Below are positions 916 through 63,874 of a DNA stretch of 63,874 nucleotides, in pieces (within the stretch, counting starts at the first letter, position 1; every line of letters begins with the position of its first letter). The position numbers were made by a program, and so were the translations under genes. Source of the stretch: a virus; IMG/VR virus record IMGVR_UViG_3300037510_000075; one strand, written 5' to 3'. The notes under the pieces were generated by a model. The model saw nothing but the letters and a program-made list of their open reading frames with translations, was not told the origin of the DNA and did not search any database.

Positions 916-992
916 TGGTGACTCTGGTAGGAATTGAACCTACAGCCTGTAGATTAGAAGTCTACTGCTCTATCCGATTGAGCTACAGAGTC
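916..992 (-). tRNA. tRNA-Arg (anticodon UCU), 77 nt
   Basis: Canonical cloverleaf: GACTCTG/CAGAGTC acceptor, GCTC-AATCGGATA-GAGC D arm, anticodon loop CTTCTAA, GTAGG-TTCAATT-CCTAC T arm, A73 and CCA. Its 5' end overlaps the stop codon of the upstream CDS. Confidence 0.92.
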
Positions 993-5214: not shown

Positions 5215-5768
5215 TGGCTAAAGATAAAGATAAACGTAGACCGTTAACTTATATGCAGAAGAAGTTTATAGACGAGTTGCTATTAGACCCTACTCGTAAT
5301 GCTACTGCTGCAGCTAAGAGGGCTGGTTATACTATTAAGAATGCAAGACACTTAGGTTGGCAGCTCACTAAGCATCCGGTTATTTCAGAGATACTCGAAG
5401 AAGAAAATAAGAAGATAGCTGCAAAGCTGGGTATCACCAAAGAAAGGGTTTTCCAAGAGTTAGCTCAAATTGGGTTCGCCAATCTAAAGCATATTATGAC
5501 TCAAGATGAGAACGGTAATACAGACGTTAATTTAGCTTACCTGCCAGATGCTGTAGCTAGCCCTATTACAGAGGTTAGTGTTTCTTCTTCTGATAATAAA
5601 GGTATTAAGGTTAAAAACGTTAAAGTTAAGATAGCCGATAAAAGACAGGCTCTCATCGATATAGCGAAGATCATGGGTTGGTTTCAAGAGAAGGTTGAGG
5701 TTACTCAGAATATGAGTTTAGAGCAACTCATCGAGAAATCTTACTCCGAGGAAATTAGTCCTGCTTGA
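5214..5768 (+). CDS. terS: terminase small subunit
   Basis: 184 aa. The N-terminal HTH-like segment KKFIDELLLDPTRNATAAAKRAGYTIKNARHLGWQL is typical of small terminases. It overlaps both the HNH stop and the TerL start. Confidence 0.75.
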   Translation: MAKDKDKRRPLTYMQKKFIDELLLDPTRNATAAAKRAGYTIKNARHLGWQLTKHPVISEILEEENKKIAAKLGITKERVFQELAQIGFANLKHIMTQDENGNTDVNLAYLPDAVASPITEVSVSSSDNKGIKVKNVKVKIADKRQALIDIAKIMGWFQEKVEVTQNMSLEQLIEKSYSEEISPA

Positions 5769-39540: not shown

Positions 39541-40183
39541 TTGTGATCAATCCTTTTAAGCTGGGGAATTGCTGTAGTATTATATTCCAACATTGTTCTG
39601 CTATAAGCTTGTGCTCTTTCTGAGTTCCGTTATCCCTACGAAGTTGACAATAATGTATCCAGCTACGCAGAGTACCAGCCATATACATATTAGATAGTGT
39701 CAGACCTTCTGATAGAAGACAACGAGCCTGCTCTTTAGCTATACCTCTGTTGATGGCTTCTTCATAATAATGAGAGGCCCAATTTTTAATATCGCTTTGA
39801 GCAGATAGAAACCAACTATTTAATTCATCATCTGCATTATCTATAGAATTCTGTCTATTTTTAGAATCCTGTAGTCTGCACTCTCTATTAGTAAATTGTA
39901 TTTCATCTGAATATCTCTGGGAGAACTCTTGGAAAGAGAATGATCTGTGTCTAAGTATCTGTCTGCCGATATCTCGGGTAGTTTGTATTTCCATAGTTAA
40001 AGAGACTATTTCAAATGGACTCCAATGCTTGTGATCTATTAGCCATTTTAAAAGCTTAGATGCAGTCATGTGATTGAGTTGATTATTAGGGTTGCTTACT
40101 CTAGCACAATAACTGATAAACTCTTCTGGTGTAGATACTTCAGGGATTACAGGATGTGTGAGACCGACTAACTTAACACTCAT
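39533..40183 (-). CDS. thyX: flavin-dependent thymidylate synthase
   Basis: 216 aa with the ThyX signature RHRSFSFQEFSQRY. Confidence 0.88.
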   Translation of the reverse strand: MSVKLVGLTHPVIPEVSTPEEFISYCARVSNPNNQLNHMTASKLLKWLIDHKHWSPFEIVSLTMEIQTTRDIGRQILRHRSFSFQEFSQRYSDEIQFTNRECRLQDSKNRQNSIDNADDELNSWFLSAQSDIKNWASHYYEEAINRGIAKEQARCLLSEGLTLSNMYMAGTLRSWIHYCQLRRDNGTQKEHKLIAEQCWNIILQQFPSLKGLITID

Positions 40184-40184
40184 G

Positions 40185-40376
40185 TCAAATTTCTTCTACC
40201 AAATTAAATTTAGTACCTATTTTAGTACAACATGATCCATCTCTTACATGATAAGACCATGAAGTTTTCAAATCATATAAATGATCATCCATATCCTTTT
40301 CTAAGGAATACTCTTGCATAGGCCCAACTATAACACCTCTTCCGTCTTTATAGAATTTATGTTCTCTTATTCTCAT
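40185..40376 (-). CDS. hypothetical 63-aa protein
   Basis: ORF tightly packed between thyX and the MazG-like gene. Confidence 0.45.
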   Translation of the reverse strand: MRIREHKFYKDGRGVIVGPMQEYSLEKDMDDHLYDLKTSWSYHVRDGSCCTKIGTKFNLVEEI

Positions 40377-40379
40377 TTT

Positions 40380-40745
40380 CTACCGATCATCTCCTGAGCC
40401 CTTCATAGTGCCTTTCTCAACTCTCTTCTGAAGCTTCTTAGTGTTAATCATAGTCAGTTCTGCAAGACCCACATTAAGTTCGTGAGCAAGCTTAGTGACA
40501 TAATAGAGTACGTCTCCCAGTTCATTTACTATCTGCTCTACGGTTATATTACCATCACCACGAGAAAGCTTCTTAAGCTTACCAGCTACTTCCCCGGCTT
40601 CCTCACAAATAGCTAATCCTATAAAGTTAAGTTCAGCTTTAGTTTCATCCATCTCTGGTGAACCTAGCCAAACATCTTCTACAAATCTATCATAATCTTC
40701 GTACATCTTAATATTGTTAAATAGTTCTAGTTGTTTTTCACTCAT
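40380..40745 (-). CDS. mazG: MazG-like nucleoside triphosphate pyrophosphohydrolase
   Basis: 121 aa with the motifs EEAGEVAGKLKK and ELGDVLYYV, the all-alpha NTP-PPase pattern. Confidence 0.75.
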   Translation of the reverse strand: MSEKQLELFNNIKMYEDYDRFVEDVWLGSPEMDETKAELNFIGLAICEEAGEVAGKLKKLSRGDGNITVEQIVNELGDVLYYVTKLAHELNVGLAELTMINTKKLQKRVEKGTMKGSGDDR

Positions 40746-41223
40746 TATCTAATAGATTCCATTGTTGATCTACCTGTGGTTTACCTCCATATACTTTGAT
40801 ATATTCAAAAGGAAAACTCTGTTTTACATTTCTGCCATACTTTTTATGTAAATCTTTGACTCTGTTATCTAATTCATACATCCAACCATCAGGATACTTA
40901 GGTGGTCTATCATCATTCATATTCTTGTATAACTGAGAATCCCTGAGCACAACTAGAGTAGCTAGGGCTTTAGTAATATGAGAAAGACCACTATCAGGAT
41001 CAATATTCTCGCCTTCCCACCATTTAGTTAGGTGTCTGAGTGCGGCATCATAATACACAGAAGCTCTAACACCAACATCTCTGTAGTTATGTCTTCCATA
41101 CTTAAGAGCGCCCTCTAGCATAGCTACACCGATCTCAGCGATCACAGGGGCAGATATAGTACTGAAGGGTGTTTTATTAATACCTAGAGCATCTTTAGGA
41201 TTAGTTTCTTTAAATTCAGACAT
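40738..41223 (-). CDS. dATP/dGTP diphosphohydrolase N-terminal-domain-like protein
   Basis: The likely start is MSEFKETNPKD (ATG at 41223, overlapping the upstream stop). The segments ISAPVIAEIGVAMLEGALKYGRHNYRD...AALRHLTKWWEGENIDPDSGLSHI resemble this phage domain from memory. Confidence 0.55.
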   Translation of the reverse strand: MSEFKETNPKDALGINKTPFSTISAPVIAEIGVAMLEGALKYGRHNYRDVGVRASVYYDAALRHLTKWWEGENIDPDSGLSHITKALATLVVLRDSQLYKNMNDDRPPKYPDGWMYELDNRVKDLHKKYGRNVKQSFPFEYIKVYGGKPQVDQQWNLLDNE

Positions 41224-41734
41224 ACTTTTGTAATTCCTTAATACTATCTTTAGCTGATGTATGCAATATCCCAATACCCCCCATTTGTTTCCATTCTTCG
41301 CAGTTTGCGTGTAGATCGTCTACTAATATCTTATTCTTTCCAGAATAATTCTTCTTCTCAGGTCTAAAGCAAGTTATGAAACGCTCTGGGTTAAGAGGAC
41401 CAAAGTTATCTGTAAACCAAATCCACTTTTCATTAGCAATCCAGTCTACACTTCCATCCATGTGAGAAGGTAAAGCTGTAAGGATTGCCGGATCAAATTG
41501 TTTACAGTAGTTCCATAGTTTAAGAGCATCAGTCATAGGTTTAAGGTTGAGCCAGAAGCCTTCCTCTGACATACAAGCTTTTACCTGTGCATCTAGCTTC
41601 TTGTTTTCTTCGGTCCAATCGCTCTTAGAAAGATGCAGAAAGGAGTTATCATTAATTATTCCTCTATCCACCAATTCTTGATCGAAGTTAGCTAACACTC
41701 CATCCATATCTAGATAGATCAAACTTCTAACCAA
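41216..41734 (-). CDS. 5'(3')-deoxyribonucleotidase (HAD superfamily)
   Basis: 172 aa with HAD motif I YLDMDGVLANFD. Confidence 0.7.
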   Translation of the reverse strand: MVRSLIYLDMDGVLANFDQELVDRGIINDNSFLHLSKSDWTEENKKLDAQVKACMSEEGFWLNLKPMTDALKLWNYCKQFDPAILTALPSHMDGSVDWIANEKWIWFTDNFGPLNPERFITCFRPEKKNYSGKNKILVDDLHANCEEWKQMGGIGILHTSAKDSIKELQKYV

Positions 41735-51130: not shown

Positions 51131-51691
51131 TTATACATTAGCTAATTCAAATTTGGATTTATCACCTTCAAAAGTTCTCTTAAAGATACTATCTGTGTAT
51201 GTGTGATATATACAAATACCTTCTGGGTCCATAAATCCGGGAGAAGCCTTTGATCCACCCAATCTTAATTCGAGCATAAATTTATCTATCTCATCTCTGA
51301 AAAACTCACAGAACCCTAAGACAGGCACCACATCGCAGCAATCAGGCTTATTAGAATTAGGATTAGTCCATCTACCTGTGTTAAAAAGAGAGAATCTCTT
51401 CTCTTTAAGATTATAACCTCTCTGAATACCATAACCCCACCACTCACCAAAATGGTGTCCCGGTCCTAACCCTCTTAATTCTTCTTCATTTTCATAAGCC
51501 CATTTAGCAAATCCATAATTATCTCGTTCAGGTGTTATCCATCTATTTCTAGAGCCTACAAGAAAATCTCCATTCTCTCCTATATAGATCGATGCATTAG
51601 TCCCATCTAGTTTTTCTGTGATAACACAACCATTAACTTTACTCAGTCTTCCAATTTTAGGGAAAGGTTTGAATTCAATTGTCATGGCCAT
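51131..51691 (-). CDS. ATP-dependent RNA/DNA ligase-like nucleotidyltransferase (small RNA-ligase type)
   Basis: 186 aa with the adenylylation motif KLDGTNASIY and downstream GEWWGYGIQ. Confidence 0.55.
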   Translation of the reverse strand: MAMTIEFKPFPKIGRLSKVNGCVITEKLDGTNASIYIGENGDFLVGSRNRWITPERDNYGFAKWAYENEEELRGLGPGHHFGEWWGYGIQRGYNLKEKRFSLFNTGRWTNPNSNKPDCCDVVPVLGFCEFFRDEIDKFMLELRLGGSKASPGFMDPEGICIYHTYTDSIFKRTFEGDKSKFELANV

Positions 51692-52179: not shown

Positions 52180-52434
52180 TCAAGATTCTTCTTCTAGTTC
52201 TTCTTCTATGAGTAAAGACTCTAACGGTATATAATTCTCTTCTACTATATCTAATAAAGGATCGTGAACACTCATACTAATATCTGTTATTCGACTCCAT
52301 TCTATTTCTTTAGACATTGCTGCTAATTGAACTTCTAGTGTAGGTTCAAAACACTCCGCACAATACCAACGTCCTGTATGTTGATCTACTGGTGTTGCTT
52401 CAGCAAGATTTATATCACAAGCATAGCATCTCAT
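52180..52434 (-). CDS. zinc-ribbon protein with acidic tail
   Basis: The likely start is MRCYAC, which forms an ATGA overlap with the upstream stop. The Cys pairs are CYAC...CAEC. Confidence 0.45.
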   Translation of the reverse strand: MRCYACDINLAEATPVDQHTGRWYCAECFEPTLEVQLAAMSKEIEWSRITDISMSVHDPLLDIVEENYIPLESLLIEEELEEES

Positions 52435-52835
52435 AATCCTAATATTCTCTTTCTGGCTTCTGTGTACATACACATATTACCATATATAGGCCCACTCAAT
52501 CTCTGACACATAAAATGAAAGTGTCTGGCTCTAATATTTCTATCTGTATAATTCTTAACAAAAGTAGCCCATTCCCCTTTGTGAGCTATCACTTCTTCTT
52601 GTAATCTAAATTGTGGTTCATTTATGTATCGGTCCCACCAATCATCTATGGATGGTAACTTTAATTGTCTCTCTCCGTGGATTAGCTCATGTACTACTAA
52701 GTGTTCGGGGATATCTACACCACTAGGATTATAGATGGTTGTACCATAAGCATAAAGCACATTAGGTTTATCTTTTACTTGAAAAGCTTTATCTATAGCC
52801 TTTATATTAGGCGGCCAATTCTTCTCTTCTTTCAC
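52431..52835 (-). CDS. hypothetical protein with HELIH motif (possible metallopeptidase)
   Basis: 134 aa with a GTG start. It contains VVHELIHGERQ. Confidence 0.4.
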   Translation of the reverse strand: MKEEKNWPPNIKAIDKAFQVKDKPNVLYAYGTTIYNPSGVDIPEHLVVHELIHGERQLKLPSIDDWWDRYINEPQFRLQEEVIAHKGEWATFVKNYTDRNIRARHFHFMCQRLSGPIYGNMCMYTEARKRILGL

Positions 52836-52948: not shown

Positions 52949-53734
52949 CTATACATCTACAAACTCCTGAGACAGTGCTTCAACGTACTTTTCTAAGGTT
53001 TGACCTTGTAGTCCGGGGGCAGTATTGATCTCTAGAACATAAGCTTTTTCCCTGTTTTTATTGTAGATAACATCTACAGCACCAAAGTCTAATCCGCTAT
53101 TAAGAAAAGCTTTATTAGCTTGATCTAGAACATCTTGTGGAGGTTCACCAGAATTACGTACATAGATAAATCCATTCTTGTGGGCTCTTATACGCCACTC
53201 AGTCGGTGTCTGCTGAGGGTCTCTAATCTTACGTTGAACGTCCATAATGCTTAGAGAAGAACTTATGTGGACTCTCCACTCACTGTCTTTAGGGACATAT
53301 TTAGTATATAAAGGTGCGTCTGGTATATCATCTAGAGAATTATCTACGTTATTAACGAGTATTATACCATCTCCAGAGTGGCCTGTCAACTTAGTTCTAC
53401 ATACTAAAGTATCTCCTTGGTTAAACCAAACTAAAGCTAAGTCTTTTTCAGTTGTCCAAGGAACTAATCTACATGCACTATCATCAAAAGATGACTGATG
53501 CTTAAAGAATTTAATCTTATTCGTACAAGTCCCCACTAGTTCCGGTTGATTGACAATCCACTTAGCAGCAGAGAATTCAGAAGGAACCTCTGAACAACCC
53601 CAGTTAATAATATACTTATCTTGTGGATTGAATTTTGAGTTCTCTCTTTTAATTCTCTTGATACCTAAGGCTTCGGATAAGGCTTTAGCAGACTGACTCT
53701 TACTGTTGTAGGAGTATAGAAATACATTATTCAT
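52949..53734 (-). CDS. ATP-grasp ligase (RimK-like)
   Basis: 261 aa with the motifs TGHSGDGIILV and KAYVLEINTAPGLQG. Confidence 0.65.
   Translation of the reverse strand: MNNVFLYSYNSKSQSAKALSEALGIKRIKRENSKFNPQDKYIINWGCSEVPSEFSAAKWIVNQPELVGTCTNKIKFFKHQSSFDDSACRLVPWTTEKDLALVWFNQGDTLVCRTKLTGHSGDGIILVNNVDNSLDDIPDAPLYTKYVPKDSEWRVHISSSLSIMDVQRKIRDPQQTPTEWRIRAHKNGFIYVRNSGEPPQDVLDQANKAFLNSGLDFGAVDVIYNKNREKAYVLEINTAPGLQGQTLEKYVEALSQEFVDV
53361..53389 (-). promoter_or_regulatory. perfect sigma70 promoter embedded in the ATP-grasp coding sequence
   Basis: TTGACA (complement of 53389-53384), 17-nt spacer, TATAAT (complement of 53366-53361), with a TGG extended -10 element. Confidence 0.7.
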
Positions 53735-53745
53735 TTAGGTTCCTT

Positions 53746-54018
53746 TTAGATAGATTTAACTCTAATAACTTTTATGTGGGGGATTGCTAGTGGTTGATCA
53801 TACCAAATATAGTAAAGTCTGCAGTTTGGGGGTAATGAACAATCAAATGTTATTTGAGTTGGTCCGTGAGTTAATGTTATAACGGAATTGTTTGCAGACT
53901 CATTAATCACCGATTGAACAACACAAGGACGTCCTTGCATCCAAATAAGATCACCCTCTTCCGATTCAAAGTATTCAGATTGTGGTGTAGAATATCCATC
54001 CCAATAATGACTTTGCAA
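53746..54018 (-). CDS. hypothetical 90-aa protein (operon member)
   Basis: ORF with an 11-nt gap to the ATP-grasp gene. Confidence 0.45.
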   Translation of the reverse strand: MQSHYWDGYSTPQSEYFESEEGDLIWMQGRPCVVQSVINESANNSVITLTHGPTQITFDCSLPPNCRLYYIWYDQPLAIPHIKVIRVKSI

Positions 54019-54038
54019 GTCACTTAAACCAAGTTCTT

Positions 54039-55121
54039 CTACACTACTTGTACTATTGGTTTCTTCCTTTTGCGGACTACTCTCTTTTTTTTTGGTGCTG
54101 TATCAGACCAATCAATTTTATAAGCGACATCTCTCATCATTCTCAATCCATCCCATAGTTTATTTGACAGAGAAGGAATAGGACTGAGTAAGACATTTAG
54201 TTGATGGTCATCAAATATCTTAGAGAAGAAAAGCAATGGACCTAACTCACTGAACTCTTCTACGATATCGATAGGGTTTTTATAACCTTCTGCCTTTACT
54301 CGAATATTATTTAGTAGGTTTACCCATAGCATAATCAACTCAGGATCAATAGTACCCTTCAAGGCTCTGAACTCTAGAGAACCAAACTTGGGGATGGCAC
54401 TAATATTGCAGGCACTATAACGCATATCCTCTTTCCAATCAGAGAGAGTTTTATGTTCTAGTGCAAATTCTAACATACGAATGATATATTCAGAGTCTTT
54501 AGCTCGTAAACAAAATAAATTACCCGCTCTTTCGGGTGAGGCCCAATCAATCAGAACTTCTTCGAAGATCATATAGAGAAGAATAAAACAATAGAGTTGT
54601 CTAATAGTATACTGCTGGCAATTAAAGTGTACGTGCACAGAGCATCTATTAGACATGATTACTTCAGACTTATTATCTTGAAGCTTATAATACAGAAACT
54701 CTAAAGCTTTTCTGGTTTCTTCTATAGAAAGAGGTTGTCTCAAAACATACTCTACTGCAGGGTGTCCTTCTACTTCTCTTAGAGAACCATCTTGGTGACA
54801 ACTCCAATATTTAAATGTGCTTCCTAATAGATTCTTACCTTCTACCTCTACTTCTAATCCTATTAATCCTTCTTTAAGTCCATTTCTAAATGACACTATT
54901 TGTGCTAAAGGTGCATTATGGAAGAGTTCCATATATTTCTTTTCCTTTTTAGATGATTTTATTCCGGTTACATAACCACCATCACTAGTGGCGCCTATAT
55001 AAACCCATTGAGAAGGTGTGGAAGGAGGTATAGGATTAAGGATTGGTGGTAAAACACTATTAAGAATATTAGCTTGTACTATCTCTGTGAGATTTACATT
55101 ATAACTTAGTGGATCAGGCAA
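54039..55121 (-). CDS. amidoligase-like (glutamine-synthetase-fold carboxylate-amine ligase) protein
   Basis: 360 aa with the segments GLIGLEVEVEG, CHQDGSLREVEGHPAVEYVL and SVHVHFNC, which resemble the amidoligase family from memory. Confidence 0.5.
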   Translation of the reverse strand: MPDPLSYNVNLTEIVQANILNSVLPPILNPIPPSTPSQWVYIGATSDGGYVTGIKSSKKEKKYMELFHNAPLAQIVSFRNGLKEGLIGLEVEVEGKNLLGSTFKYWSCHQDGSLREVEGHPAVEYVLRQPLSIEETRKALEFLYYKLQDNKSEVIMSNRCSVHVHFNCQQYTIRQLYCFILLYMIFEEVLIDWASPERAGNLFCLRAKDSEYIIRMLEFALEHKTLSDWKEDMRYSACNISAIPKFGSLEFRALKGTIDPELIMLWVNLLNNIRVKAEGYKNPIDIVEEFSELGPLLFFSKIFDDHQLNVLLSPIPSLSNKLWDGLRMMRDVAYKIDWSDTAPKKKRVVRKRKKPIVQVV

Positions 55122-55746
55122 TTTTAAACCCCTGCATTTCGGTTAATTCTTCAGCTAAAAATTTCTTGTGCGGTGCGAGCTTCAAGAGCTTTCCATCTTC
55201 GGTATACCCTACTCTCTCATTTCGATAGATAAGATTAGGTGGGTTAACTTTATCAAATGCTAACATACATTTCCTGCTGATAGCCACACTTCTAACTTCA
55301 TCCGGTGAATTGAGTAAGTCTTTAATAGCAGTGGAAGCAGGTGTATATTTATTTTTTATGGTAGAGTTCAATGATTCCTGCTCTAAGATATGATCCCAAG
55401 AGTAACTATGTCTATCATTAAAGAATGAGAAGATACGAACAACCCTAGAATCAACACCTTGACGTGTAGTTCTGACTGGTGCTCTGCTCACAAACAAAGC
55501 TTCTCTAATTCCACGAGAACTATAATAATCCACATAACCTAGCTTAGAGCTAATAGATTTAAAATCTAATAGAGGGTCATCGATATCTACCCATTGTCTC
55601 TTGTTAGAACCAAAAGGAATCTTGCAGAACTCTAGAGTTACTTTACCATCTGATCCACCTACATTGCTTATGTAAACAGGATCACCATCGTAGAGAATTG
55701 TTGTACCACTAATCTTTTGTTCTGCTTCAGCTCTAGTAGTATACAT
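55114..55746 (-). CDS. hypothetical 210-aa protein (operon member)
   Basis: ORF that overlaps the downstream start by 8 nt. Confidence 0.45.
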   Translation of the reverse strand: MYTTRAEAEQKISGTTILYDGDPVYISNVGGSDGKVTLEFCKIPFGSNKRQWVDIDDPLLDFKSISSKLGYVDYYSSRGIREALFVSRAPVRTTRQGVDSRVVRIFSFFNDRHSYSWDHILEQESLNSTIKNKYTPASTAIKDLLNSPDEVRSVAISRKCMLAFDKVNPPNLIYRNERVGYTEDGKLLKLAPHKKFLAEELTEMQGFKIA

Positions 55747-55762
55747 CTTTTATTCCTATTGT

Positions 55763-56614
55763 CTATGCTGCTGTTTGTTGCATCCATTTAACAAACTCCT
55801 CTGGACGCCCTCCGAATTCTCCACAAATTTCTTTACCTTCTGTAGTATTATACCAATCTACAATACCTTCATCAATAACTCTTTGGGCAAAATTACCGTA
55901 CTTATCTTCCATCGAGTATGATTTAGTAGACAGATCATTAACTGCAGACGCAGTTCTGTTGAATACAAAAGCTTGTAGCTTCCTATTCTTCAGCCACTTA
56001 TTCGAGAGAGTTCTGTATTCGCACCCATAAGATTTATATCGCAATGCCCCTGCTTTACCATATAATGAACGTCTGCGTGGATCAGGGTCCCAGAATAAAG
56101 ACCATATACCCAAGTAATAGTCTAATTGCTTAGCTACTAAATGACAATCCTCTCTATGAGACTCACATCCTGTATTTGCATCATCTCTCCAACCTACGTG
56201 AATATGACCTGAAGCTGTTCTAAACGGCATGTCTGCATCTGGAGTTACATTAACTTGTCCAGTCCAAGCATTATAATCTGGATTACACCCTAGCTCTTTT
56301 ACTTCTACGGGTAGAGACTTGAAATAATCTAGATCAAATGAAGAGACAGGCTCCATAACTAATTCATAGTCAGGTACAAGACTCTTCAGTGTATTAATAA
56401 CATTAGTAATGTTATCTACAAATTGTGGGTAATCACCAGCCGGATCAATATTAAACTCAGCGGCGGTACCATCTACTTGAATAGCCCCGTTGGCCACCTT
56501 AAAAGGTTTTAGTTTAGTGCCCGGTAAGAGTGTATGAGCACTCACCATCTTACCTGTGATCTTATGCTTGAGGAATAATTCAGGATCAGCACCAACAAGA
56601 ATCTTACTAACCAT
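55763..56614 (-). CDS. phiEco32-type COOH-NH2 ligase-like protein
   Basis: 283 aa. The N-terminus ILVGADPELFLKH and the segments ASGHIHVGW and GCEYRTLSN match my recollection of this phage ligase family. Confidence 0.55.
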   Translation of the reverse strand: MVSKILVGADPELFLKHKITGKMVSAHTLLPGTKLKPFKVANGAIQVDGTAAEFNIDPAGDYPQFVDNITNVINTLKSLVPDYELVMEPVSSFDLDYFKSLPVEVKELGCNPDYNAWTGQVNVTPDADMPFRTASGHIHVGWRDDANTGCESHREDCHLVAKQLDYYLGIWSLFWDPDPRRRSLYGKAGALRYKSYGCEYRTLSNKWLKNRKLQAFVFNRTASAVNDLSTKSYSMEDKYGNFAQRVIDEGIVDWYNTTEGKEICGEFGGRPEEFVKWMQQTAA

Positions 56615-56783
56615 CGCATTGCTCCATCGTTCTAAGAAATTCTAAGATAAGTTCTGCATCATCTCTGTAAGAATCTTTAAACCACTCTACTTCTTTATCC
56701 CACATAAATTGATTGTAATCACAATGAATTTCATCGTGTAGAAATTCAGCTAACTTTTCTACTACTGAGTCTATTTTTGTCAT
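56607..56783 (-). CDS. 58-aa micro-protein (operon member)
   Basis: The ATG at 56783 forms an ATGA overlap with the class-II GATase stop. The product is MTKIDSVVEKLAEFLHDEIHCDYNQFMWDKE... Confidence 0.4.
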   Translation of the reverse strand: MTKIDSVVEKLAEFLHDEIHCDYNQFMWDKEVEWFKDSYRDDAELILEFLRTMEQCDG

Positions 56784-58288
56784 GCAGCTTTCTTTCCTAA
56801 CTTCTCTATTTGATCTGGTAATTGTGGGGTTAATGCACACCACTCACAAAAGAACTCATGCTGAGGTGTGACGAATCTAACTTCATTACCCCATTCTGGT
56901 GTTCTTCCGCACTGGATACAACCGCTAGACATTAGCTCTTCAAAGTATTGTTTATCCAGTAGCTTTCCATTATAGCCTTTATAGTAAACACGCTTCTTAT
57001 TCTTCTTACCTTTATGTTTGAAATGATGTCTAGCATTTATATCTAAAGGTTTAAAAGGTAAGTCAGCCGGAGGAATAGCTACATCCTTCCATAAGTCCCA
57101 CTTATTATCTATCGAGTTGTAAGCAAGATAACTCCACTTACCAGTAGTAGAATCACGCCATACTTTGATATTAGCATTTTCATATATCTTAAATAACGGA
57201 GGTTCTTCTTGAAGACACAATCCAGCTTTGACTGCTTCTTCTAAAGCTCTCTTACGTATAATATCAAAAGCAGTAAGAGCCTTATTTTGAGGCACGTGAT
57301 TATTTATCTTACTAAGATTATCACTGACTCTCTTTAAAATATCCACATTGGAAGTAATATTAGTAGTTTTCTTTGGGATATAACCTACATATAATCCACC
57401 ATATTCCATTTCATCCGTGTCTTTATTTACTGGCTCATATACTGTAATATCCTTCCCAATATTCGCTTTCTGAAAGTTCGTATCTTCCTTTTTTTTATTG
57501 TCACCTTTAGTCCAATAAGAGTTACTATGATAATAGACTGTTGTTTTTCTACCTACTAGTTTAGTTCTGGTAGGTGGTTTAATGATCTCATCGGCCTTAA
57601 GAGGAATATCCCAAGTGTGTAATGTATCTACAGGTAAGTCTATAAACTTATCATCTACAGGCTTAAGGCCTTCTCTGTGAATAGCTGCAGCCAACATTCC
57701 ATATTCAGAAGACCAAGCAATAGTCTTGCCATCATTTACATAACAATACACTAAAGTTCTATGCTCATTACGTATTAGATTTAAAGTGTTCGTATTGTTG
57801 TCGAACCAAGTTAAAGCATAAGCTTCTGTGTCATCTATACGAGAGATAGTATCTTCGATACCGCGGACTTGAATAGTGTTAAAGATAGCTTCAGAGTCAG
57901 TAGAGAAACTAGAACCAGATTCTAATCTATTCTTATTTTGGAAATCTAATGTACCATTGTGAGCACCCATAATATTAGGGAACAGAAATGGGTGAGCATT
58001 TTTTCTGTTGTTCTCGCCAACAGTCTTGCTTCTATTATGACCTATGTAACATAGATTGACACCAGCAAAAACCTGATTATATCTCTTAGTATCTTCTAAG
58101 AAATAGAATGGTCCTGTTTCTTTAGCAATCTGCATCTTAAGATTGCCATCTTCATCGTGATTACTACGGGAAACAGAACCTACTCCAGTCGCATCCGTAC
58201 CTCTTAGTTGATTGAAGATGAGTAGTGTCTTAACTACTTTCTCTTCCTTTAGGGATACTGAACCGGCAACACCGCTTAATCCACACAT
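56780..58288 (-). CDS. class II (Ntn) glutamine amidotransferase-like protein with C-terminal Cys4 ribbon
   Basis: 502 aa. It starts MCGLSGVAG, giving a catalytic Cys after Met removal. The C-terminus is CIQCGRT...FFCEWC. Confidence 0.65.
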   Translation of the reverse strand: MCGLSGVAGSVSLKEEKVVKTLLIFNQLRGTDATGVGSVSRSNHDEDGNLKMQIAKETGPFYFLEDTKRYNQVFAGVNLCYIGHNRSKTVGENNRKNAHPFLFPNIMGAHNGTLDFQNKNRLESGSSFSTDSEAIFNTIQVRGIEDTISRIDDTEAYALTWFDNNTNTLNLIRNEHRTLVYCYVNDGKTIAWSSEYGMLAAAIHREGLKPVDDKFIDLPVDTLHTWDIPLKADEIIKPPTRTKLVGRKTTVYYHSNSYWTKGDNKKKEDTNFQKANIGKDITVYEPVNKDTDEMEYGGLYVGYIPKKTTNITSNVDILKRVSDNLSKINNHVPQNKALTAFDIIRKRALEEAVKAGLCLQEEPPLFKIYENANIKVWRDSTTGKWSYLAYNSIDNKWDLWKDVAIPPADLPFKPLDINARHHFKHKGKKNKKRVYYKGYNGKLLDKQYFEELMSSGCIQCGRTPEWGNEVRFVTPQHEFFCEWCALTPQLPDQIEKLGKKAA

Positions 58289-58291
58289 CAG

Positions 58292-58471
58292 TTATTTACT
58301 TTCCTTTAGAAGTTTAGGTGAATCTAAACTAGTTAATACAACAGTATAAGAAGAATAGAGAGAAATGATATCAGCTTCTTTATCTGTTAAATACAATACA
58401 GGTCCTTTTGAAATTGGATTACCTTTTGAAGTGTGTCCAATAAACTGATAGGGCTTTCTCTTTTCTCTCAT
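58292..58471 (-). CDS. 59-aa micro-protein (operon member)
   Basis: The ATG at 58471 lies 1 nt after the upstream stop. The stop lies 3 nt before the class-II GATase ATG. It is just below the ORF-track threshold. Confidence 0.4.
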   Translation of the reverse strand: MREKRKPYQFIGHTSKGNPISKGPVLYLTDKEADIISLYSSYTVVLTSLDSPKLLKESK

Positions 58472-58472
58472 G

Positions 58473-59135
58473 TTACTTACTCCAATAGTATTTATCCATT
58501 AGCTCATGGAAATACTTGGTTGTGGGAGGATGACCGAACTCAGGATGAAACTGTACTAGTAAGCTATCCGTCTTAGGATACCACAGAGCTTCTACATCTC
58601 TGTCTGCTTCTTCTATATGATCGCCTACTCTGGTGTGTGGTCTGTTCCACAGATCGTGTTGAGCTTCTTTACGAGTACACTCATATGCCCAACACAATAA
58701 CTCAGCCTCTGAAGTAGGGCGCATCATCTGATGGTGAACAGAGTTTATGACCACCCAACTACCAGAAACACAATCAAAGGCTCTGTGGTTTCTGCCATCA
58801 TGGTTATCTACATCTTGCCAGAGCTTACCACCGTTGACTACTACGTTGAGAAGTTGAGCACCTCTGCAGATACCTACCAGAAACTTAGAATGGGCTACCG
58901 CATCCTTTACAGCTTCTATATCTGAAATATCTCTGTCAGAGAAATAGGTGCTATTTAAGGGTGTCTCATCATATAGTCTTGGATTGATATCTTCTCCACC
59001 AGTCCATACGACTATATCTGCATCCTTGAGCTTAGGTGCAAGCTTGTATCGACCTGTGCTCAGGAACACTTCTGAGGTAATACCATTGTAAGGTTTACCC
59101 ACTACAAAGATATTAGCTCTACTGAATAATGCCAT
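58473..59135 (-). CDS. class I glutamine amidotransferase / peptidase C26 (gamma-glutamyl hydrolase-like)
   Basis: 220 aa with the nucleophile elbow GICRGAQLLNVV and the His/Glu motif VQFHPEF. Confidence 0.72.
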   Translation of the reverse strand: MALFSRANIFVVGKPYNGITSEVFLSTGRYKLAPKLKDADIVVWTGGEDINPRLYDETPLNSTYFSDRDISDIEAVKDAVAHSKFLVGICRGAQLLNVVVNGGKLWQDVDNHDGRNHRAFDCVSGSWVVINSVHHQMMRPTSEAELLCWAYECTRKEAQHDLWNRPHTRVGDHIEEADRDVEALWYPKTDSLLVQFHPEFGHPPTTKYFHELMDKYYWSK

Positions 59136-60072
59136 CTTTAATTAGCCTCTTCTGTTCTTCTTTCATAATAGCGATAACTGCTTCGGGTGTGAATATCTGA
59201 ACCTCAGCTTGTTTCGCCTTACCGAATTGAGATTGTGTGGTCGTTAAATCTCTTTCAGTATAGTCTTTATACGTATCTAATAGCTTGGTCAGATAATCAT
59301 TTCTGTGGATTCCAATAGTGTTACTTTGACCCCATAGAGTATTGATAGGTTTAGTATGTTGATTAGCAAAATAAGAGAGCTTAGAAGGATTTACTGGTGT
59401 GCCTCTGAGGAAGTTATGAAAGTATTCTTCGTTAGAAGTACCTACATCTAGAGGCCAATCATATTTATTTGCATAGGTTATTCTTGAATATCTACCTCTA
59501 GGGCCTAACCAACAGAGCGAATCTTTTATATCTTGACTACAAACTTTGAATACATCCAAGAAATAGAAAGCTAAGTCTGGGTTGATATTCTCTACGGTAA
59601 CACTGTGAAACCATGCATTTATGAAGTCCGGCCATTCTGCAGCTAATCGAGAAGCAATCAGAAAGTTGTGTAGATAGTTACCGGGTATCTGATCTAAATT
59701 AGTAAAGATAAATGCATTATCAAAGATAAACTCTTCGGTGCATTCATTGTTGAACCAAGAGTTATTACGCACCCAAGGGGACTTATGTAGAAGCCAGTGC
59801 AGATAATAAGCAGCTACTTCTTCACTAGTCCTATAACCAAATGCACTCCACAGAACCTTAGGGCGATCAAACCCGGTGATAGGATGATGACAAGGATATG
59901 TTCTATAATCTGAATATCCTGTAGTAGATATATAACCTACTAATACATTATCTGCACCAGTACCAACACTAGTAAGATCACCACTAGGATTCCAATTAGG
60001 AGTATTTTCTTTTGCTTGTAAATAATGTTCGTAACCTCTTTGTAAATCTTTATCTTTAAACTTTATGGTCAT
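59119..60072 (-). CDS. hypothetical 317-aa protein (operon member)
   Basis: ORF. ATGA overlap with the upstream gene (60069-60072) and a 17-nt overlap with the downstream gene. Confidence 0.5.
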   Translation of the reverse strand: MTIKFKDKDLQRGYEHYLQAKENTPNWNPSGDLTSVGTGADNVLVGYISTTGYSDYRTYPCHHPITGFDRPKVLWSAFGYRTSEEVAAYYLHWLLHKSPWVRNNSWFNNECTEEFIFDNAFIFTNLDQIPGNYLHNFLIASRLAAEWPDFINAWFHSVTVENINPDLAFYFLDVFKVCSQDIKDSLCWLGPRGRYSRITYANKYDWPLDVGTSNEEYFHNFLRGTPVNPSKLSYFANQHTKPINTLWGQSNTIGIHRNDYLTKLLDTYKDYTERDLTTTQSQFGKAKQAEVQIFTPEAVIAIMKEEQKRLIKDGIIQ

Positions 60073-60554
60073 CTAAAGAACCTCTTCTTAGATTTCTTAT
60101 TACGTGGGGTTAAAGGATCATACATATACACATATAATCTGTTACCTGAATTAGAGTTAACAGTTCTAGAACTAACCAATCTAAAACCCAACTCTCGTAA
60201 GCACGGTGCAATCCAAAGCTGATCATTTATCAGAGTAGCAATAGTGATATGCCCTTTAGAAGGTACATCAGAATTGAATTTATCTTTTAAATAATCAAAG
60301 TAGATTCTCTTTATAGTTTGTTGAGATATCTTATTATACTTTAGTTCTCTTGAATCACAGAAATATTTATAAGATTCATTAACTTTATGATAAAGTACTG
60401 CTAAATTTTCCTCTAAAAATCTACCCCATTCACTCATACCACAACAATATGTTAATTCACTTGGTACTAAGTGATTTTTAAAGATTAGATTTTTCCCAAG
60501 TAAAAAACTTACAATGTCATAATTTTTCCCGATATCATATTTATCTTTAGTCAC
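60069..60554 (-). CDS. hypothetical 161-aa protein (first gene of the operon)
   Basis: GTG start with an AGAGGAAAG SD. It is preceded by a structured leader. Confidence 0.5.
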   Translation of the reverse strand: MTKDKYDIGKNYDIVSFLLGKNLIFKNHLVPSELTYCCGMSEWGRFLEENLAVLYHKVNESYKYFCDSRELKYNKISQQTIKRIYFDYLKDKFNSDVPSKGHITIATLINDQLWIAPCLRELGFRLVSSRTVNSNSGNRLYVYMYDPLTPRNKKSKKRFFR

Positions 60555-60733
60555 AATACTTTCCTCTTCTAAGTAAAGTTAATTGGTGGTACTAACCCCA
60601 ACCGACGAAACCTTTAAGAACCTCTGGTTAGTACCTTTGCTCGTCAGGGTTTGATAGGTATTTTTACGAGCCCCTCTTGTGCCACTCACACAGGAATCCC
60701 ACCTGTTAGTTCGGGTTGTTAACCCTTGAGTGA
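60555..60733 (-). ncRNA. structured 179-nt intergenic leader / candidate cis-regulatory RNA
   Basis: Minus-sense helices are CACUCA/UGAGUG enclosing GGGUU-AAC-AACCC and ACAGG-UGGGAUU-CCUGU, then GCUCGU/ACGAGC, then the 10-bp GGUACUAACC/GGUUAGUACC. The alternative pairing GACGA/UCGUC competes with the second helix. Confidence 0.4.
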
Positions 60734-61095: not shown

Positions 61096-61563
61096 TTATC
61101 TCCAAGTCGGTGGACCATCTATAGTCCAGTTAGGTGGATATACATCAGAGTTCCATTTGTCTCTGAGTGTTTGCTTATATGCTTCTATGATAGGCAAGCT
61201 TTTATAGGGTGTACAATTAGGGTGCGGTGTTCTAGTAGAGTGATAATCATAGGAGAAGATAGAATAACTGATGAATCCACGGATAATAGGCTCACTCTTA
61301 TGTTCTCTGCCGTATCTACGAGTATAAGTCTCGGCTAATTCAACACCGTGTATTTTAAGCCAAGAGAAGTTAGCTAGAGATTGACCCGCCCATAGAACAC
61401 AAGGATGGTTCATATGAGTGGGCTTATAGGGTGTATCACACCCTAGTTTATGAGTTATAGTAGATAGTATTTGTGCAGTTTCTAGAACCATCTTTACTAA
61501 ACGCTTATCATCTAAAGCAACTGCACAAGCTTTAGGGTCGTCTGAAGTATAGAAGATGTTCAT
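61096..61563 (-). CDS. conserved phage protein (MNIFY..DDP....A..LDDKRLVKM..E.AQ family), function uncertain
   Basis: 155 aa. I recognise the N-terminal signature as a family widespread in phages and large DNA viruses, sometimes annotated as DNA glycosylase-like. This is unverified. Confidence 0.4.
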   Translation of the reverse strand: MNIFYTSDDPKACAVALDDKRLVKMVLETAQILSTITHKLGCDTPYKPTHMNHPCVLWAGQSLANFSWLKIHGVELAETYTRRYGREHKSEPIIRGFISYSIFSYDYHSTRTPHPNCTPYKSLPIIEAYKQTLRDKWNSDVYPPNWTIDGPPTWR

Positions 61564-63546: not shown

Positions 63547-63874
63547 GACTTATTAATCTTTCTGATCTTTATCATCTTCTCTAGGTACTCTAAAATTGCT
63601 AGAGTTTTCTTAGCTTTATCTGTATTAGGGTACGTAGTTTCGATGTGCGTTCTATACTCTTTAAACGATAAATATCTACAACCTGCTCTAACCTTTAGAC
63701 CATCATAATCAAATCTGAATCCATCTGAACGAGTAGGCCCTACTATGTAGCAAGTGTTCCGCAGGTCAGCCCCACGCAGGTCAGCCTTACTCAGGTTAGC
63801 CCCACTCAGGTTAGCCCCACTCAGGTTAGCCCTACTCAGGTTAGCCCTACTCAGGTTAGCCCCACGCAGGTCAG
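63543..63874 (-). CDS. pentapeptide-repeat protein, C-terminal part (continuation of the 225->1 gene)
   Basis: Reading the complement gives ...[109 protein letters not shown], with the stop at 63545-63543. Confidence 0.8.
   Translation of the reverse strand, partial: DLRGANLSRANLSRANLSGANLSGANLSKADLRGADLRNTCYIVGPTRSDGFRFDYDGLKVRAGCRYLSFKEYRTHIETTYPNTDKAKKTLAILEYLEKMIKIRKINKS
63810..63874. repeat. 65-nt terminal overlap identical to nt 1-65 (circular closure / assembly redundancy)
   Basis: The unit-by-unit comparison of the 15-bp repeats aligns in only one register. Removing the overlap restores the reading frame of the junction gene. Confidence 0.9.

Follow-up and report, generated by a model that had tools for sequence, protein, structure and literature searches.

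What does a tightly packed block of eleven minus-strand genes in an uncultured phage make, and is the block a unit of its own? The genes lie in a 63,874-nucleotide stretch of viral DNA (hereafter the window) and had been taken, in a preliminary description, for an eleven-gene operon. Our analysis identified the block as a copy of the “phiEco32-type” amidoligase cassette, which is exclusive to phages, and not as a novel operon. New here is the copy in an uncultured phage; the cassette itself has already been noticed in hundreds of phages, cultured ones included. It is better studied in cultured phages; our literature searches, as had been anticipated, found no experimentally defined product of the cassette.

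All eleven ORFs were confirmed from 60554 to 52949 (Table 1). An independent gene caller, run on another assembly of this sequence, returned identical ORFs of 161, 317, 220, 59, 502, 58, 283, 210, 360 and 90 aa, followed by a truncated ATP-grasp gene. The two ATGA overlaps described earlier, at 60069-60072 and 56780-56783, are borne out by the start and stop codons, and neighbouring ORFs of the block overlap by 4, 8 or 17 nt or are separated by at most 20 nt. The packing is equally tight downstream of the block, running unbroken for about 6 kb through the replication genes as far as the gene for DNA polymerase at 46670. Upstream, it is interrupted only by a 179-nt spacer (60555-60733). Eleven genes are thus an arbitrary limit and no operon boundary; the transcription unit probably extends beyond them. 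The block takes up 7.6 of 63.9 kb, the previously quoted 12% of the genome, provided that the window is the whole genome.

Table 1. Positions of the eleven ORFs of the block in the window and the evidence for each.
Feature	Position	Strand	Evidence
g161, 161-aa “CCG-motif” accessory protein	60069..60554	-	iterated HMM family
g317, 317-aa conserved cassette protein	59119..60072	-	locus conservation
GAT1, class-I GATase-fold, peptidase-C26-like thiol enzyme (putative)	58473..59135	-	Pfam, PHROG
59-aa ORF	58292..58471	-	gene caller; GGAG-like ribosome-binding site
GAT2, Ntn (class-II) glutamine amidotransferase (putative)	56780..58288	-	Pfam, PHROG
58-aa ORF	56607..56783	-	gene caller; ATGA overlap with GAT2 stop codon
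CNL2, phiEco32-type COOH-NH2 ligase (putative)	55763..56614	-	Pfam PF14395, PHROG
u210, 210-aa beta-rich partner protein	55114..55746	-	PHROG, hhalign
AML2, Amidoligase_2 family ligase (putative)	54039..55121	-	Pfam PF12224, PHROG
90-aa ORF	53746..54018	-	TTG start, weak ribosome-binding site
GRASP, RimK-like ATP-grasp ligase (putative)	52949..53734	-	PHROG, family profile versus RimK structures

Pfam, PHROG and family-profile searches upheld all five enzyme family calls of the preliminary description, and the block is accordingly predicted to encode three ATP-dependent carboxylate-amine ligases (CNL2, AML2 and GRASP) accompanied by two putative amidotransferase-type thiol enzymes (GAT1 and GAT2). 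CNL2 matched COOH-NH2_lig (PF14395, “Phage phiEco32-like COOH.NH2 ligase-type 2”; E = 1.6e-9) and phrog_3815 (1.3e-78), which points to a glutamine-synthetase-like carboxylate-amine ligase; matches of AML2 to Amidoligase_2 (PF12224, E = 1.4e-9) and phrog_7469 (2.6e-64) suggest a second ligase of this kind. Residues E12, E53, H137, H139, R192, E199 and R201 of CNL2 and E90, E92, E94, E124, H163, H165, R198, E250 and R252 of AML2 are conserved in at least 98% of homologues. Using hhalign, no link between the two ligases was found past an R-x-S/G-H-x-H motif. Sequence-based search found no solved structural relative for either protein, so that their substrate specificity cannot be read. GRASP had no Pfam match and was assigned through phrog_2599 (5e-72) and its family profile, which retrieved RimK (5zct/4iwx) at 2e-6, then alpha-L-glutamate ligase, CdnC/MdnB and Ddl. 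It is a short form whose alignment begins at RimK residue 68, and its K73, E152, R154, K169, D221, E235 and N237 are conserved in at least 99% of homologues.

GAT1 matched Peptidase_C26 (E = 5.5e-19), GATase (7e-5) and phrog_7218 (3e-36), and its intact Cys90-His197-Glu199 triad is 100% conserved across 85 homologues. It is a candidate gamma-glutamyl-amide hydrolase or glutaminase; in NCBIfam it showed a sub-threshold likeness to gamma-glutamyl-CDP-amidate hydrolase and PuuD. GAT2 matched GATase_6 (E = 2.3e-12) and phrog_4736 (2e-56). Among its 101 homologues, R29, H84, R86, N111, G112, D131 and the four cysteines of a C-terminal zinc ribbon (C457/C460/C481/C484) all reach at least 93% conservation and C2 reaches 82%; residues about 225-450 are poorly conserved. 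Scored on about 100 homologues per enzyme, all listed catalytic residues of the five enzymes are at least 93% conserved except Cys2 of GAT2, and all five enzymes have their catalytic residues intact. In addition, a gamma-glutamyl cyclotransferase (GGCT) gene, absent from the window, directly adjoins the cassette in 21 of 115 related loci (18%) and in the examined phiEco32-like and LUZ24-like representatives (phiEco32, phiIBB-PAA2). GAT1 is also present in 17 of these 21 loci, therefore the two are not simple alternatives. Cleavage of gamma-glutamyl amides is an established activity both of the GGCT/AIG2/BtrG fold and of C26 enzymes, PuuD among them, and the GGCT neighbours lend support to the earlier proposal of a pathway that builds and trims a glutamyl or glutaminyl adduct.

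The cassette was found in 315 GenBank phage records (CNL2 tblastn), and more than 551 IMG/VR contigs carry relatives (CNL2). Conservation was counted in 83-115 related loci from IMG/VR and GenBank, where the genes are strictly co-conserved in the fixed order (g317)-GAT1-GAT2-CNL2-u210-AML2-GRASP. GAT2 (107/115), CNL2, u210, AML2 (106/115) and GRASP (100/115) each occur in about 85-100% of the 115 loci, GAT1 in about 75% (86/115), g317 in about 57% and g161 in about 24%. The conserved unit hence comprises five to eight genes, not eleven, and this, together with the packing that continues to the DNA polymerase gene, speaks against the eleven-gene operon. The same families also occur in PA11 (colinear), phiEco32, phiIBB-PAA2 (LUZ24-like), SE131 and MW202615; the window has no DNA-level match among GenBank phages and a protein identity to them of at most 30-50%. 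The cassette is confined to phage genomes: 185,579 species genomes gave just 30 matches, of which most came from metagenome-assembled genomes and many lay on contigs of phage size. It adjoins replication genes, with a primase/helicase gene downstream in 77 of 83 loci. In SU10, a relative of phiEco32, the ATP-grasp, GATase and GGCT-like proteins and a neighbouring 23-kDa protein were detected by MS as early gene products (PMC4281155). That these families co-occur in phages, as the preliminary description stated, had been described by Iyer, Abhiman, Burroughs & Aravind (2009, Mol Biosyst), as that work is cited in PMC10580990 and PMC4431377.

Three further proteins, previously counted among five orphans, belong to conserved families. 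The 210-aa protein u210 (phrog_11055, 4.7e-16) lies between the two glutamine-synthetase-like ligases and is present in 82 of 83 loci; hhalign relates it to phiEco32 gp85 (84% probability, E = 7.8e-6). Its AF2 model (pLDDT 80.4) matched solely uncharacterised phage proteins, LUZ24-like and phiEco32-like ones included (TM 0.7-0.78), and had no significant match in the PDB, the best being an EF-P/eIF5A barrel. No conserved Lys, Glu, Cys or terminus and no conserved acceptor residue was found in u210, a non-catalytic, beta-rich protein that may serve as a scaffold or adaptor. In 60 of 83 IMG/VR and GenBank loci the C26 GATase gene is immediately preceded by a g317 homologue, and the g317 family, clustered at 50% identity, counts 908 cluster representatives at E <= 1e-3. 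Predicted as mostly helical, g317 has an invariant Cys61-His62 (“PCHA”), an S-P-W motif and Arg142, and some homologues are fused to SH3-like repeats; g317 may be a thiol or metal enzyme. None of 126 family members matched Pfam, no PDB relative was found and the AF2 model was unusable (pLDDT 39.5). Members of the g161 family, one to three paralogues per locus, open the cassette on its 5' side in 28 of 115 loci. The iterated HMM of the family converged on 38 ORFs, of which 25 have a CC[GSA] motif, and the window protein is 54% identical over 61 aa to the ORF that immediately precedes the g317 homologue in a close relative (L117). Searches of Pfam, PHROG, NCBIfam and PADLOC returned nothing for g161.

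The ORFs of 59, 58 and 90 aa had no homologue at any of about 115 related loci; they are unique to the window phage, lie outside the conserved cassette and are putative in coding status. The 59- and 58-aa ORFs were both predicted by the independent caller, the latter with a good ribosome-binding site; L117 and L118, the closest relatives, lack the former at the equivalent site. The 90-aa ORF is unlike the 68-aa ORF at the corresponding position in L117 and, given its start codon and poor ribosome-binding site, is a doubtful gene.

Taken together, we favour, with a little more than even confidence, a reading of the cassette as an early- or middle-expressed, multi-step ATP-dependent pathway that would build and trim glutamyl or gamma-glutamyl amide bonds, a chemistry derived wholly from family membership. 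We propose that CNL2 and AML2, of glutamine-synthetase fold, probably form a complex with u210, whose gene always lies between theirs. Each of CNL2, AML2 and GRASP would convert a carboxylate to an acyl-phosphate and join it to an amine, so that as many as three amide or isopeptide bonds, most likely glutamyl or gamma-glutamyl, would form in succession; linked ligases with different folds usually carry out successive peptide ligations (PMC4431377). GAT2 might pass glutamine-derived ammonia to an activated carboxylate (amidation) or remove a gamma-glutamyl group in an EgtC-like manner. The C26-type GAT1 would cut a gamma-glutamyl amide, a step that GGCT may take over or share in many relatives, and glutamate would be a handle or protecting group, or else the mark would be reversible. 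As acceptor we tentatively rank first a protein or other macromolecule, because of the adaptor-like parts (u210, the GAT2 zinc ribbon, the SH3-like repeats on some g317 homologues) and the likeness to RimK; a free small metabolite follows closely, a cytoplasmic cell-wall precursor is unlikely and a nucleic acid less likely still.

It is possible, though we hold this only tentatively, that the cassette makes a free small molecule (a gamma-glutamyl peptide, polyamine conjugate or amidated metabolite) aiding replication, or that it boosts host nitrogen assimilation. Five enzymes with trimming enzymes look like a small biosynthetic cluster. PuuA/PuuD pair a ligase with a C26 hydrolase, EgtA/EgtC a ligase with an Ntn GATase and BtrJ/BtrG an ATP-grasp enzyme with a GGCT, pairings that those of the cassette may parallel. 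The NCBIfam likeness of GAT1 fits this reading, and homologous genes of a Planctomycete phage were speculatively read as auxiliary genes of nitrogen metabolism (eLife, PMC10945688). Nevertheless, the cassette families are phage-exclusive and highly divergent from host metabolic enzymes, hence unlike borrowed host genes, and a universal non-catalytic u210, a zinc ribbon and SH3-like repeats are atypical of a purely small-molecule pathway.

Bacterial peptidoglycan is amidated by ligase-plus-GATase pairs (MurT/GatD, AsnB-type), which the ligases and GATases of the cassette recall. Amidation or extension of D-iso-Glu/mDAP on UDP-MurNAc-peptide or lipid II, leading to superinfection exclusion or affecting lysis timing, would also agree with early expression and the resemblance of GRASP to Ddl, and PMC10580990 credits Iyer et al. 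(2009) with such a function for phiEco32. We consider it rather unlikely, however: no cassette protein matched a Mur-ligase-type family (Pfam, PHROG, NCBIfam), no lysis-gene linkage was seen at cassette loci, and the cassette spans phages of very different hosts with unlike stem peptides (contigs binned with Patescibacteria and cyanobacteria).

A hypermodified DNA base, one of the products first suggested, is improbable. A glutamyl, glutaminyl or amidated side chain added or extended on a base would block restriction, and the GAT2 zinc ribbon, the location in a replication and nucleotide-metabolism module and the amidoligase/amidotransferase domains that some viral contigs combine with genes for thymidine hypermodification (PMC8989533; bioRxiv 10.1101/2025.08.14.668559) accord with this. 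Yet among the window ORFs (Pfam and PHROGs) there is no 5-hmU DNA kinase, amino-acid:DNA transferase, TET/JBP dioxygenase, ParB, dUMP hydroxymethylase or DpdA/QueC-type gene, and the phage has its own ThyX, an enzyme that yields ordinary dTMP. Furthermore, 44% of 6-bp palindromes are under-represented, versus 4% of other hexamers, and five are wholly absent, the pattern typical of a genome that faces restriction. Phage tf, a LUZ24-like phage with genes for an amidoligase and a glutamine amidotransferase, yielded DNA that was cut with HaeIII and then ligated and sequenced in the normal way (PMC3517423). Finally, graspetide-like or Pup-like tagging, with a 59-, 58-, 90- or 49-aa ORF as precursor or tag for the ATP-grasp enzyme and ligases, is suggested by the GRASP profile matches to the microviridin-type maturases CdnC/MdnB (MvdC/D sub-threshold), by two glutamine-synthetase-fold paralogues reminiscent of PafA/Dop and by small ORFs interspersed among enzyme genes, but is very improbable and already largely refuted because these ORFs are unconserved in every related locus, closest relatives included, the cassette holds no conserved small protein family and u210 has no conserved C-terminal Gln, Glu or Gly-Gly.

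Among known systems, the Pup ligase system (PafA/Dop) likewise has two paralogous glutamine-synthetase-fold carboxylate-amine enzymes, and PF12224 and PF14395 probably belong to the same Pfam clan as the Pup ligase; cassette loci, however, have no conserved Pup-like tag gene. Gamma-glutamyl pathways combine an ATP-dependent carboxylate-amine ligase with a GATase-fold thiol hydrolase (class I C26 or Ntn class II) or GGCT. The “add and remove” gamma-glutamyl logic of PuuA/PuuD (putrescine), EgtA/EgtC (ergothioneine) and BtrJ/BtrG (butirosin) may match that of the cassette, although orthology to its enzymes is not detectable and the cassette has three ligases, two GATase-fold enzymes and phage-specific non-catalytic proteins. 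GRASP shares the ATP-grasp core with the MptN/CofF-type alpha-L-glutamate ligases and with RimK, the ribosomal protein S6 poly-alpha-L-glutamate ligase, which provides its best structural-sequence relatives. The Lys, Glu, Arg, Asp and Glu-x-Asn metal site are common to RimK and GRASP, a superfamily-level likeness below the NCBIfam cut-offs, and GRASP is without the RimK N-terminal domain. The closest systems are the cassettes of phiEco32, LUZ24-PaP3 and PA11. The window adds g317, the CCG-motif protein and the three unique small ORFs and has no GGCT, whereas in phiEco32 and LUZ24 GAT2 follows AML2, GGCT is present and the C26 GATase is absent. All share with the window the same five enzyme families, the same uncharacterised protein between the ligases and the position before the primase/helicase gene, and the gene order of PA11 gp001-gp008 is colinear with that of the window block.

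The eleven minus-strand ORFs running from 60554 to 52949 are a divergent new member of a cassette of ligases and glutamine amidotransferases (GATases) familiar from bioinformatic work since 2009 and carried by many cultured phages. All eleven were found in the window, and an independent gene caller gave the same ORF set for a second public assembly of the same sequence. Junctions within the block are overlaps of 4, 8 or 17 nt or gaps of at most 20 nt, the ATGA overlaps at 60069-60072 and 56780-56783 were verified from the start and stop codons, and a Shine-Dalgarno-like sequence is present at most starts, the 90-aa ORF having a TTG start with a poor site. The preliminary description had called the block an eleven-gene operon. 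Its ORFs and packing stand but not its delimitation, as tight packing continues past 52949 through four short ORFs, an RNA ligase, a primase/helicase and more genes to the DNA polymerase at 46670. Since this packing is unbroken and the sole break on the upstream side is a 179-nt spacer, the eleven ORFs form part of a longer early/middle run of genes read leftward. A scan for promoter and terminator consensus sequences gave nothing above chance and defined no operon boundaries. The spacer itself, directly upstream of the cassette, is relatively G+C-rich; a riboswitch within it was rejected, there being no Rfam match and a folding energy equal to that of shuffled sequence. Two sigma-70 promoters match the consensus perfectly (12/12) and carry an extended -10 TG. 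The first lies where the leftward genes begin at their far end, and the second, inside the ATP-grasp gene, could drive the downstream replication genes.

Features of the gene block and of the remainder of the window, with family matches, conserved residues and occurrence among related loci (first set, 83; full set, 115).
Feature	Position	Strand	Family match or description	Conserved residues	First set	Full set
g161	60069-60554	minus	161-aa protein
g317	59119-60072	minus	317-aa protein		60/83	65/115
GAT1	58473-59135	minus	class-I GATase; Pfam Peptidase_C26, E = 5.5e-19	Cys90, His197, Glu199	71/83	86/115
59-aa ORF	58292-58471	minus
GAT2	56780-58288	minus	Ntn class-II GATase; Pfam GATase_6, E = 2.3e-12; N-terminus MCGLSG	Cys2 (82%), Arg29, His84, Arg86, Asn111-Gly112, Asp131; Cys4 zinc ribbon C457/C460/C481/C484	82/83	107/115
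58-aa ORF	56607-56783	minus
CNL2	55763-56614	minus	COOH-NH2 ligase; PF14395, E = 1.6e-9, 37.8 bits (cut-off 25); phrog_3815, 1.3e-78	Glu, His, Arg clusters	83/83 (criterion for choosing these loci)	115/115
u210	55114-55746	minus	210-aa protein		82/83	97/115
AML2	54039-55121	minus	Amidoligase_2, PF12224, E = 1.4e-9, 38.6 bits (cut-off 22)	Glu, His, Arg clusters	82/83	106/115
90-aa ORF	53746-54018	minus
GRASP	52949-53734	minus	ATP-grasp; phrog_2599, 5e-72	Lys73, Glu152, Arg154, Lys169, Asp221, Glu235, Asn237	81/83	100/115
Spacer	60555-60733
Promoter, far end of leftward block	63546-63518	minus
Promoter, inside GRASP	53389-53361	minus
Zinc-ribbon protein	52180-52473	minus	small, CxxC...CxxC; very acidic C-terminal tail (...LIEEELEEES)
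RNA ligase	51131-51691		Rnl type
Primase/helicase	51130-49460	minus
DNA glycosylase	61096-61563	minus	T4 endonuclease V-like, pyrimidine-dimer; PF03013, 6e-10
Nucleotide-pool module	36922-41734	minus
tRNA genes (three)	250-992	minus	Rfam tRNA, 53-77 bits
Pentapeptide-repeat gene	991-1554		pentapeptide repeats and DUF5758
Terminal repeat DNA	1-241 and 63717-63874		same 15-nt-periodic repeat
Large terminase	5765-8260		831 aa, unusually long

The five enzyme family assignments made earlier were all upheld, four by Pfam and that of GRASP by PHROG together with a structure-profile match. GAT1, GAT2, CNL2 and AML2 exceed the curated Pfam cut-offs and have strong PHROG matches. GRASP has no Pfam match at 0.01, and its family profile (25 members) retrieved RimK (5zct/4iwx) first among structures (2e-6), followed by alpha-L-glutamate ligases, microviridin-type ligases and Ddl. 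Alignments of 85-111 homologues per enzyme show at least 93% conservation of the residues expected for catalysis in all five enzymes, with the exception of GAT2 Cys2, and because of this conservation all five are predicted, very likely correctly, to be active. The middle third of GAT2 shows no conservation. No solved relative of CNL2, AML2 or GAT2 was found by sequence or profile searches of the PDB, and the PPR and CpcN matches returned by such searches were discarded as low-complexity or repeat noise. CNL2 and AML2 are not detectable paralogues, hhalign having aligned only an R-x-S/G-H-x-H motif.

All ORFs of 83 related loci (115 in the later set) were collected and searched with iterated profiles built from each of the window's proteins. 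Gene-neighbourhood conservation bore out the grouping, as the cassette enzymes are co-conserved in a fixed order across these 83-115 loci. The commonest order is that of the window (g317-GAT1-GAT2-CNL2-u210-AML2-GRASP, 38 loci), most of the others are shortened versions of it or depart from it mainly in the position of the ATP-grasp gene(s), and CNL2-u210-AML2 is kept in almost all loci, with AML2 two genes downstream of CNL2. The primase/helicase lies 1.8 kb downstream of the window's cassette, and a cassette upstream of this gene was found in 77 of the 83 loci. Immediately next to the cassette, 21 of 115 loci have a gene for gamma-glutamyl cyclotransferase (GGCT), an accessory feature that phages of the phiEco32 and LUZ24 types also possess; GAT1 and GGCT are not mutual alternatives, both being present in 17 of those 21. 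A GGCT HMM search of the window gave no match, and phage PA11 is likewise without GGCT.

A near-identity search with the block DNA gave no match among GenBank phages. A CNL2-type ligase occurs in 315 GenBank phage records with at most 50% identity (121 with Pseudomonas and 94 with Escherichia hosts, followed by Vibrio, Aeromonas, Proteus, Salmonella and others), and more than 551 IMG/VR contigs are relatives. The hosts of cassette-bearing phages include Pseudomonas and E. coli as well as bacteria of marine origin and of candidate phyla. A search of 185,579 species-representative genomes of bacteria and archaea gave only 30 matches, most of them in metagenome-assembled genomes and many on phage-sized contigs of ~44-55 kb, probably the result of misbinned phage genomes. 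The cassette is phage-exclusive. The co-occurrence of these families had indeed been remarked on in comparative genomics, by Iyer et al. 2009 according to the passages citing that work in PMC10580990, PMC4431377 and PMC10945688, and phage genome papers routinely list the genes (PMC6209634, PMC3517423, PMC3890496). As supposed earlier, no experimentally defined product was found in the literature searched, and according to a 2023 paper the functions "remain to be explored" (PMC10580990).

Of the five orphans that had been listed in the block, three (u210, g317 and g161) belong to conserved families. The 59-, 58- and 90-aa ORFs are without homologue across the related loci, closest relatives included. 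The u210 protein (phrog_11055) is always encoded between the two ligases. Its homology and that of g317 are detectable with profiles only, and tblastn with either gave no match among GenBank phages. By hhalign u210 matches phiEco32 gp85 (84% probability, E = 7.8e-6), PA11 gp006 is 25% identical to it over the full length, and its fold matches LUZ24-like and phiEco32-like proteins. The AF2 model of u210 is of good quality (pLDDT 80, pTM 0.77) and beta-rich. Searching the PDB with the u210 sequence or profile gave nothing meaningful. Foldseek gave no significant PDB match for it, the best being EF-P/eIF5A/HEX-1 barrels (E >= 0.04, TM ~0.2); kinship with EF-P was rejected and these non-significant matches are read as "contains an SH3/KOW-like barrel". 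The u210 alignment holds no conserved Lys, Glu, Cys or terminus, and we take the protein for a scaffold or adaptor that has no catalytic role, rather than for a substrate. A word-indexed protein search with u210 returned the protein itself alone, searches with alignments returned 8 and 4 proteins, and, the word-indexed search being almost empty, the alignments for AF2 were shallow.

The g317 family comprises 908 representatives of 50%-identity clusters (E <= 1e-3), with an invariant Cys-His dyad, an invariant Arg and an S-P-W motif; sequence and profile searches placed g317 in no Pfam family and found no PDB relative, and its AF2 model has a pLDDT of 39.5. Homologues of 540-660 aa (in L029, L028, L025, L038 and L046) carry two to four N-terminal K-[IV]-G-D-x-V repeats, in which Pfam gave only sub-threshold small-barrel matches; each repeat is probably a small barrel of SH3/Tudor/KOW-like type, and together they could serve for targeting. 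PA11 gp009 and the ~320-aa proteins encoded next to the phiEco32 and MW202615 cassettes were rejected as counterparts of g317 (hhalign probability <1%). The g161 protein is 54% identical over 61 aa to its positional equivalent in the closest relative (L117). Searches started from it gather 38 ORFs from 28 loci into a family with a conserved Cys-Cys-Gly (CCG) motif, whose members are encoded at the 5' end of the cassette or between GAT1 and GAT2 and frequently number 2-3 per locus. The Cys-His (g317) and CCG (g161) families are two previously unnamed conserved families, and the parts list comes to five core genes, four recurrent accessory families and three unique small ORFs. These small ORFs were rejected as conserved tags or carriers, not being conserved in related loci. 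The acidic zinc-ribbon protein recalls LysW-type carrier proteins or RimK substrates; it was also rejected as a conserved tag or carrier and, since it occurs in one related locus only, is probably outside the cassette.

ATP-grasp and glutamine-synthetase-fold ligases activate a carboxylate to an acyl-phosphate that is then coupled to an amine. The reaction of Ntn and class-I GATases goes through a gamma-glutamyl thioester, and these enzymes either pass ammonia to a partner synthetase or hydrolyse gamma-glutamyl amides (EgtC, PuuD), and GGCT-fold enzymes, e.g. BtrG, cleave gamma-glutamyl amines. The repeated pairing of the ligases with two or three types of gamma-glutamyl-cleaving enzyme points to a chemistry based on glutamate and glutamine, in which up to three amide bonds would be formed and at least one trimmed or amidated. 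The five intact enzymes are strictly co-inherited, phage-specific and placed in an early/replication block. In SU10, a phiEco32 relative, the ATP-grasp, GATase and GGCT-like proteins and an adjacent 23-kDa protein were detected as early products (PMC4281155), and ligases that are linked but differ in fold usually work one after another on a single product (PMC4431377).

As to the acceptor, we lean towards a macromolecule, for which the adaptor-like u210, the zinc ribbon, the SH3-like repeats and the likeness to RimK argue. A small molecule would fit equally well, given the trimming enzymes and the cluster-like make-up. A role on a cell-wall precursor is ascribed to Iyer et al. 2009 in PMC10580990. 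In one form the macromolecular reading would make the cassette a complete phage "writer plus eraser" for a new modification, in which a protein (or RNA) of host or phage receives, early in infection, a short branch of glutamyl, gamma-glutamyl or glutaminyl type, with u210 providing targeting and g317 and the CCG proteins serving as new thiol-dependent transfer or carrier parts, a proposal that we offer tentatively and regard as rather unlikely.

A hypermodified DNA base, also among the candidates of the preliminary description, is disfavoured in this phage: no modification genes were found among the ORFs scanned, ThyX (PF02511, 1.3e-37) is present and palindromes are avoided. For a 5-hmdU-derived thymidine hypermodification pathway, Pfam and PHROG scans of essentially all window ORFs >100 aa revealed neither a source of 5-hmU (dUMP hydroxymethylase or TET/JBP thymine dioxygenase) nor a 5-hmU DNA kinase (P-loop) or amino-acid:DNA transferase (aGPT-Pplase), and they gave no ParB or deazaguanine gene either. 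Over the whole window z is below -2 for 44% of 6-bp palindromes vs 4% of other hexamers, the z-values being inflated ~1.4-fold by the counting of both strands; CAGCTG, AGATCT, TCCGGA, CCCGGG and ACCGGT have zero copies against 7-16 expected each, and CATG and GATC are likewise depleted. Such avoidance is expected of DNA visible to restriction enzymes and suggests selection by type II restriction systems. The nucleotide-pool module encodes ribonucleotide reductase, ThyX, MazG, a 5'-3' deoxyribonucleotidase and a dATP/dGTP diphosphohydrolase-N-domain protein (PF18909), of the family used by 2-aminoadenine phages; no PurZ-like gene was seen, hence a Z-genome is not indicated.

Several other features of the window were recorded. 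The Rnl-type RNA ligase gene lies just downstream of the cassette and an RtcB RNA ligase gene just upstream of that of L117 (4429-5661 in that locus), so RNA-repair genes neighbour the cassette in both phages. Only 6 related loci have the DNA glycosylase gene, which in the window precedes the cassette by ~0.5 kb on the upstream side. The three tRNA genes adjoin a pentapeptide-repeat gene, and with the same repeat DNA at both window ends a second such gene appears to span them, which suggests a circularly permuted or complete genome. PHROG matches to the large terminase are split (N-terminal ATPase 28-409, C-terminal 398-803) with an extra phrog_5902 match at 403-668, and this protein may be a fusion or bear an insertion.

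The cassette is among the most widespread multi-enzyme tailed-phage modules without a known product, and, taking up ~10% of genomes of 50-64 kb, it must bring the phage a benefit. The product, once known, would prove to be either a new metabolite made by phages or a new modification, of proteins or of the cell envelope, that serves host takeover, and either outcome would give a function to at least three large families: u210/phrog_11055, Cys-His (>900 clusters) and CCG. The window contributes a divergent member, a clearer parts list and evidence against DNA modification in this phage; the tractable system is the cultured cassette-bearing phages rather than this window.

PADLOC models gave no match to the eight conserved cassette proteins and two flanking proteins, and no conserved small ORF family that could be a Pup-like or graspetide tag or precursor was found inside the cassette in related loci. 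Were the writer-plus-eraser reading true, it would amount to a ubiquitin/Pup-like conjugation logic of phage invention. GRASP lacks the RimK N-terminal domain, has no RimK Pfam match at E <= 0.01 and scores far below the NCBIfam cut-offs; from its sequence it is RimK-like in fold and presumed mechanism, and not a RimK orthologue. PA11 gp001-gp008 are colinear with the window block, whereas phiEco32, the LUZ24-like phiIBB-PAA2, SE131 and a 65-kb environmental podovirus have the same families in another gene order. CNL2 is 34.6% identical to phiEco32 gp86, and the window shares with the phiEco32-type cassette PF14395, PF12224, a u210-type protein, an Ntn GATase, a RimK-like ATP-grasp and the position at the replication module.
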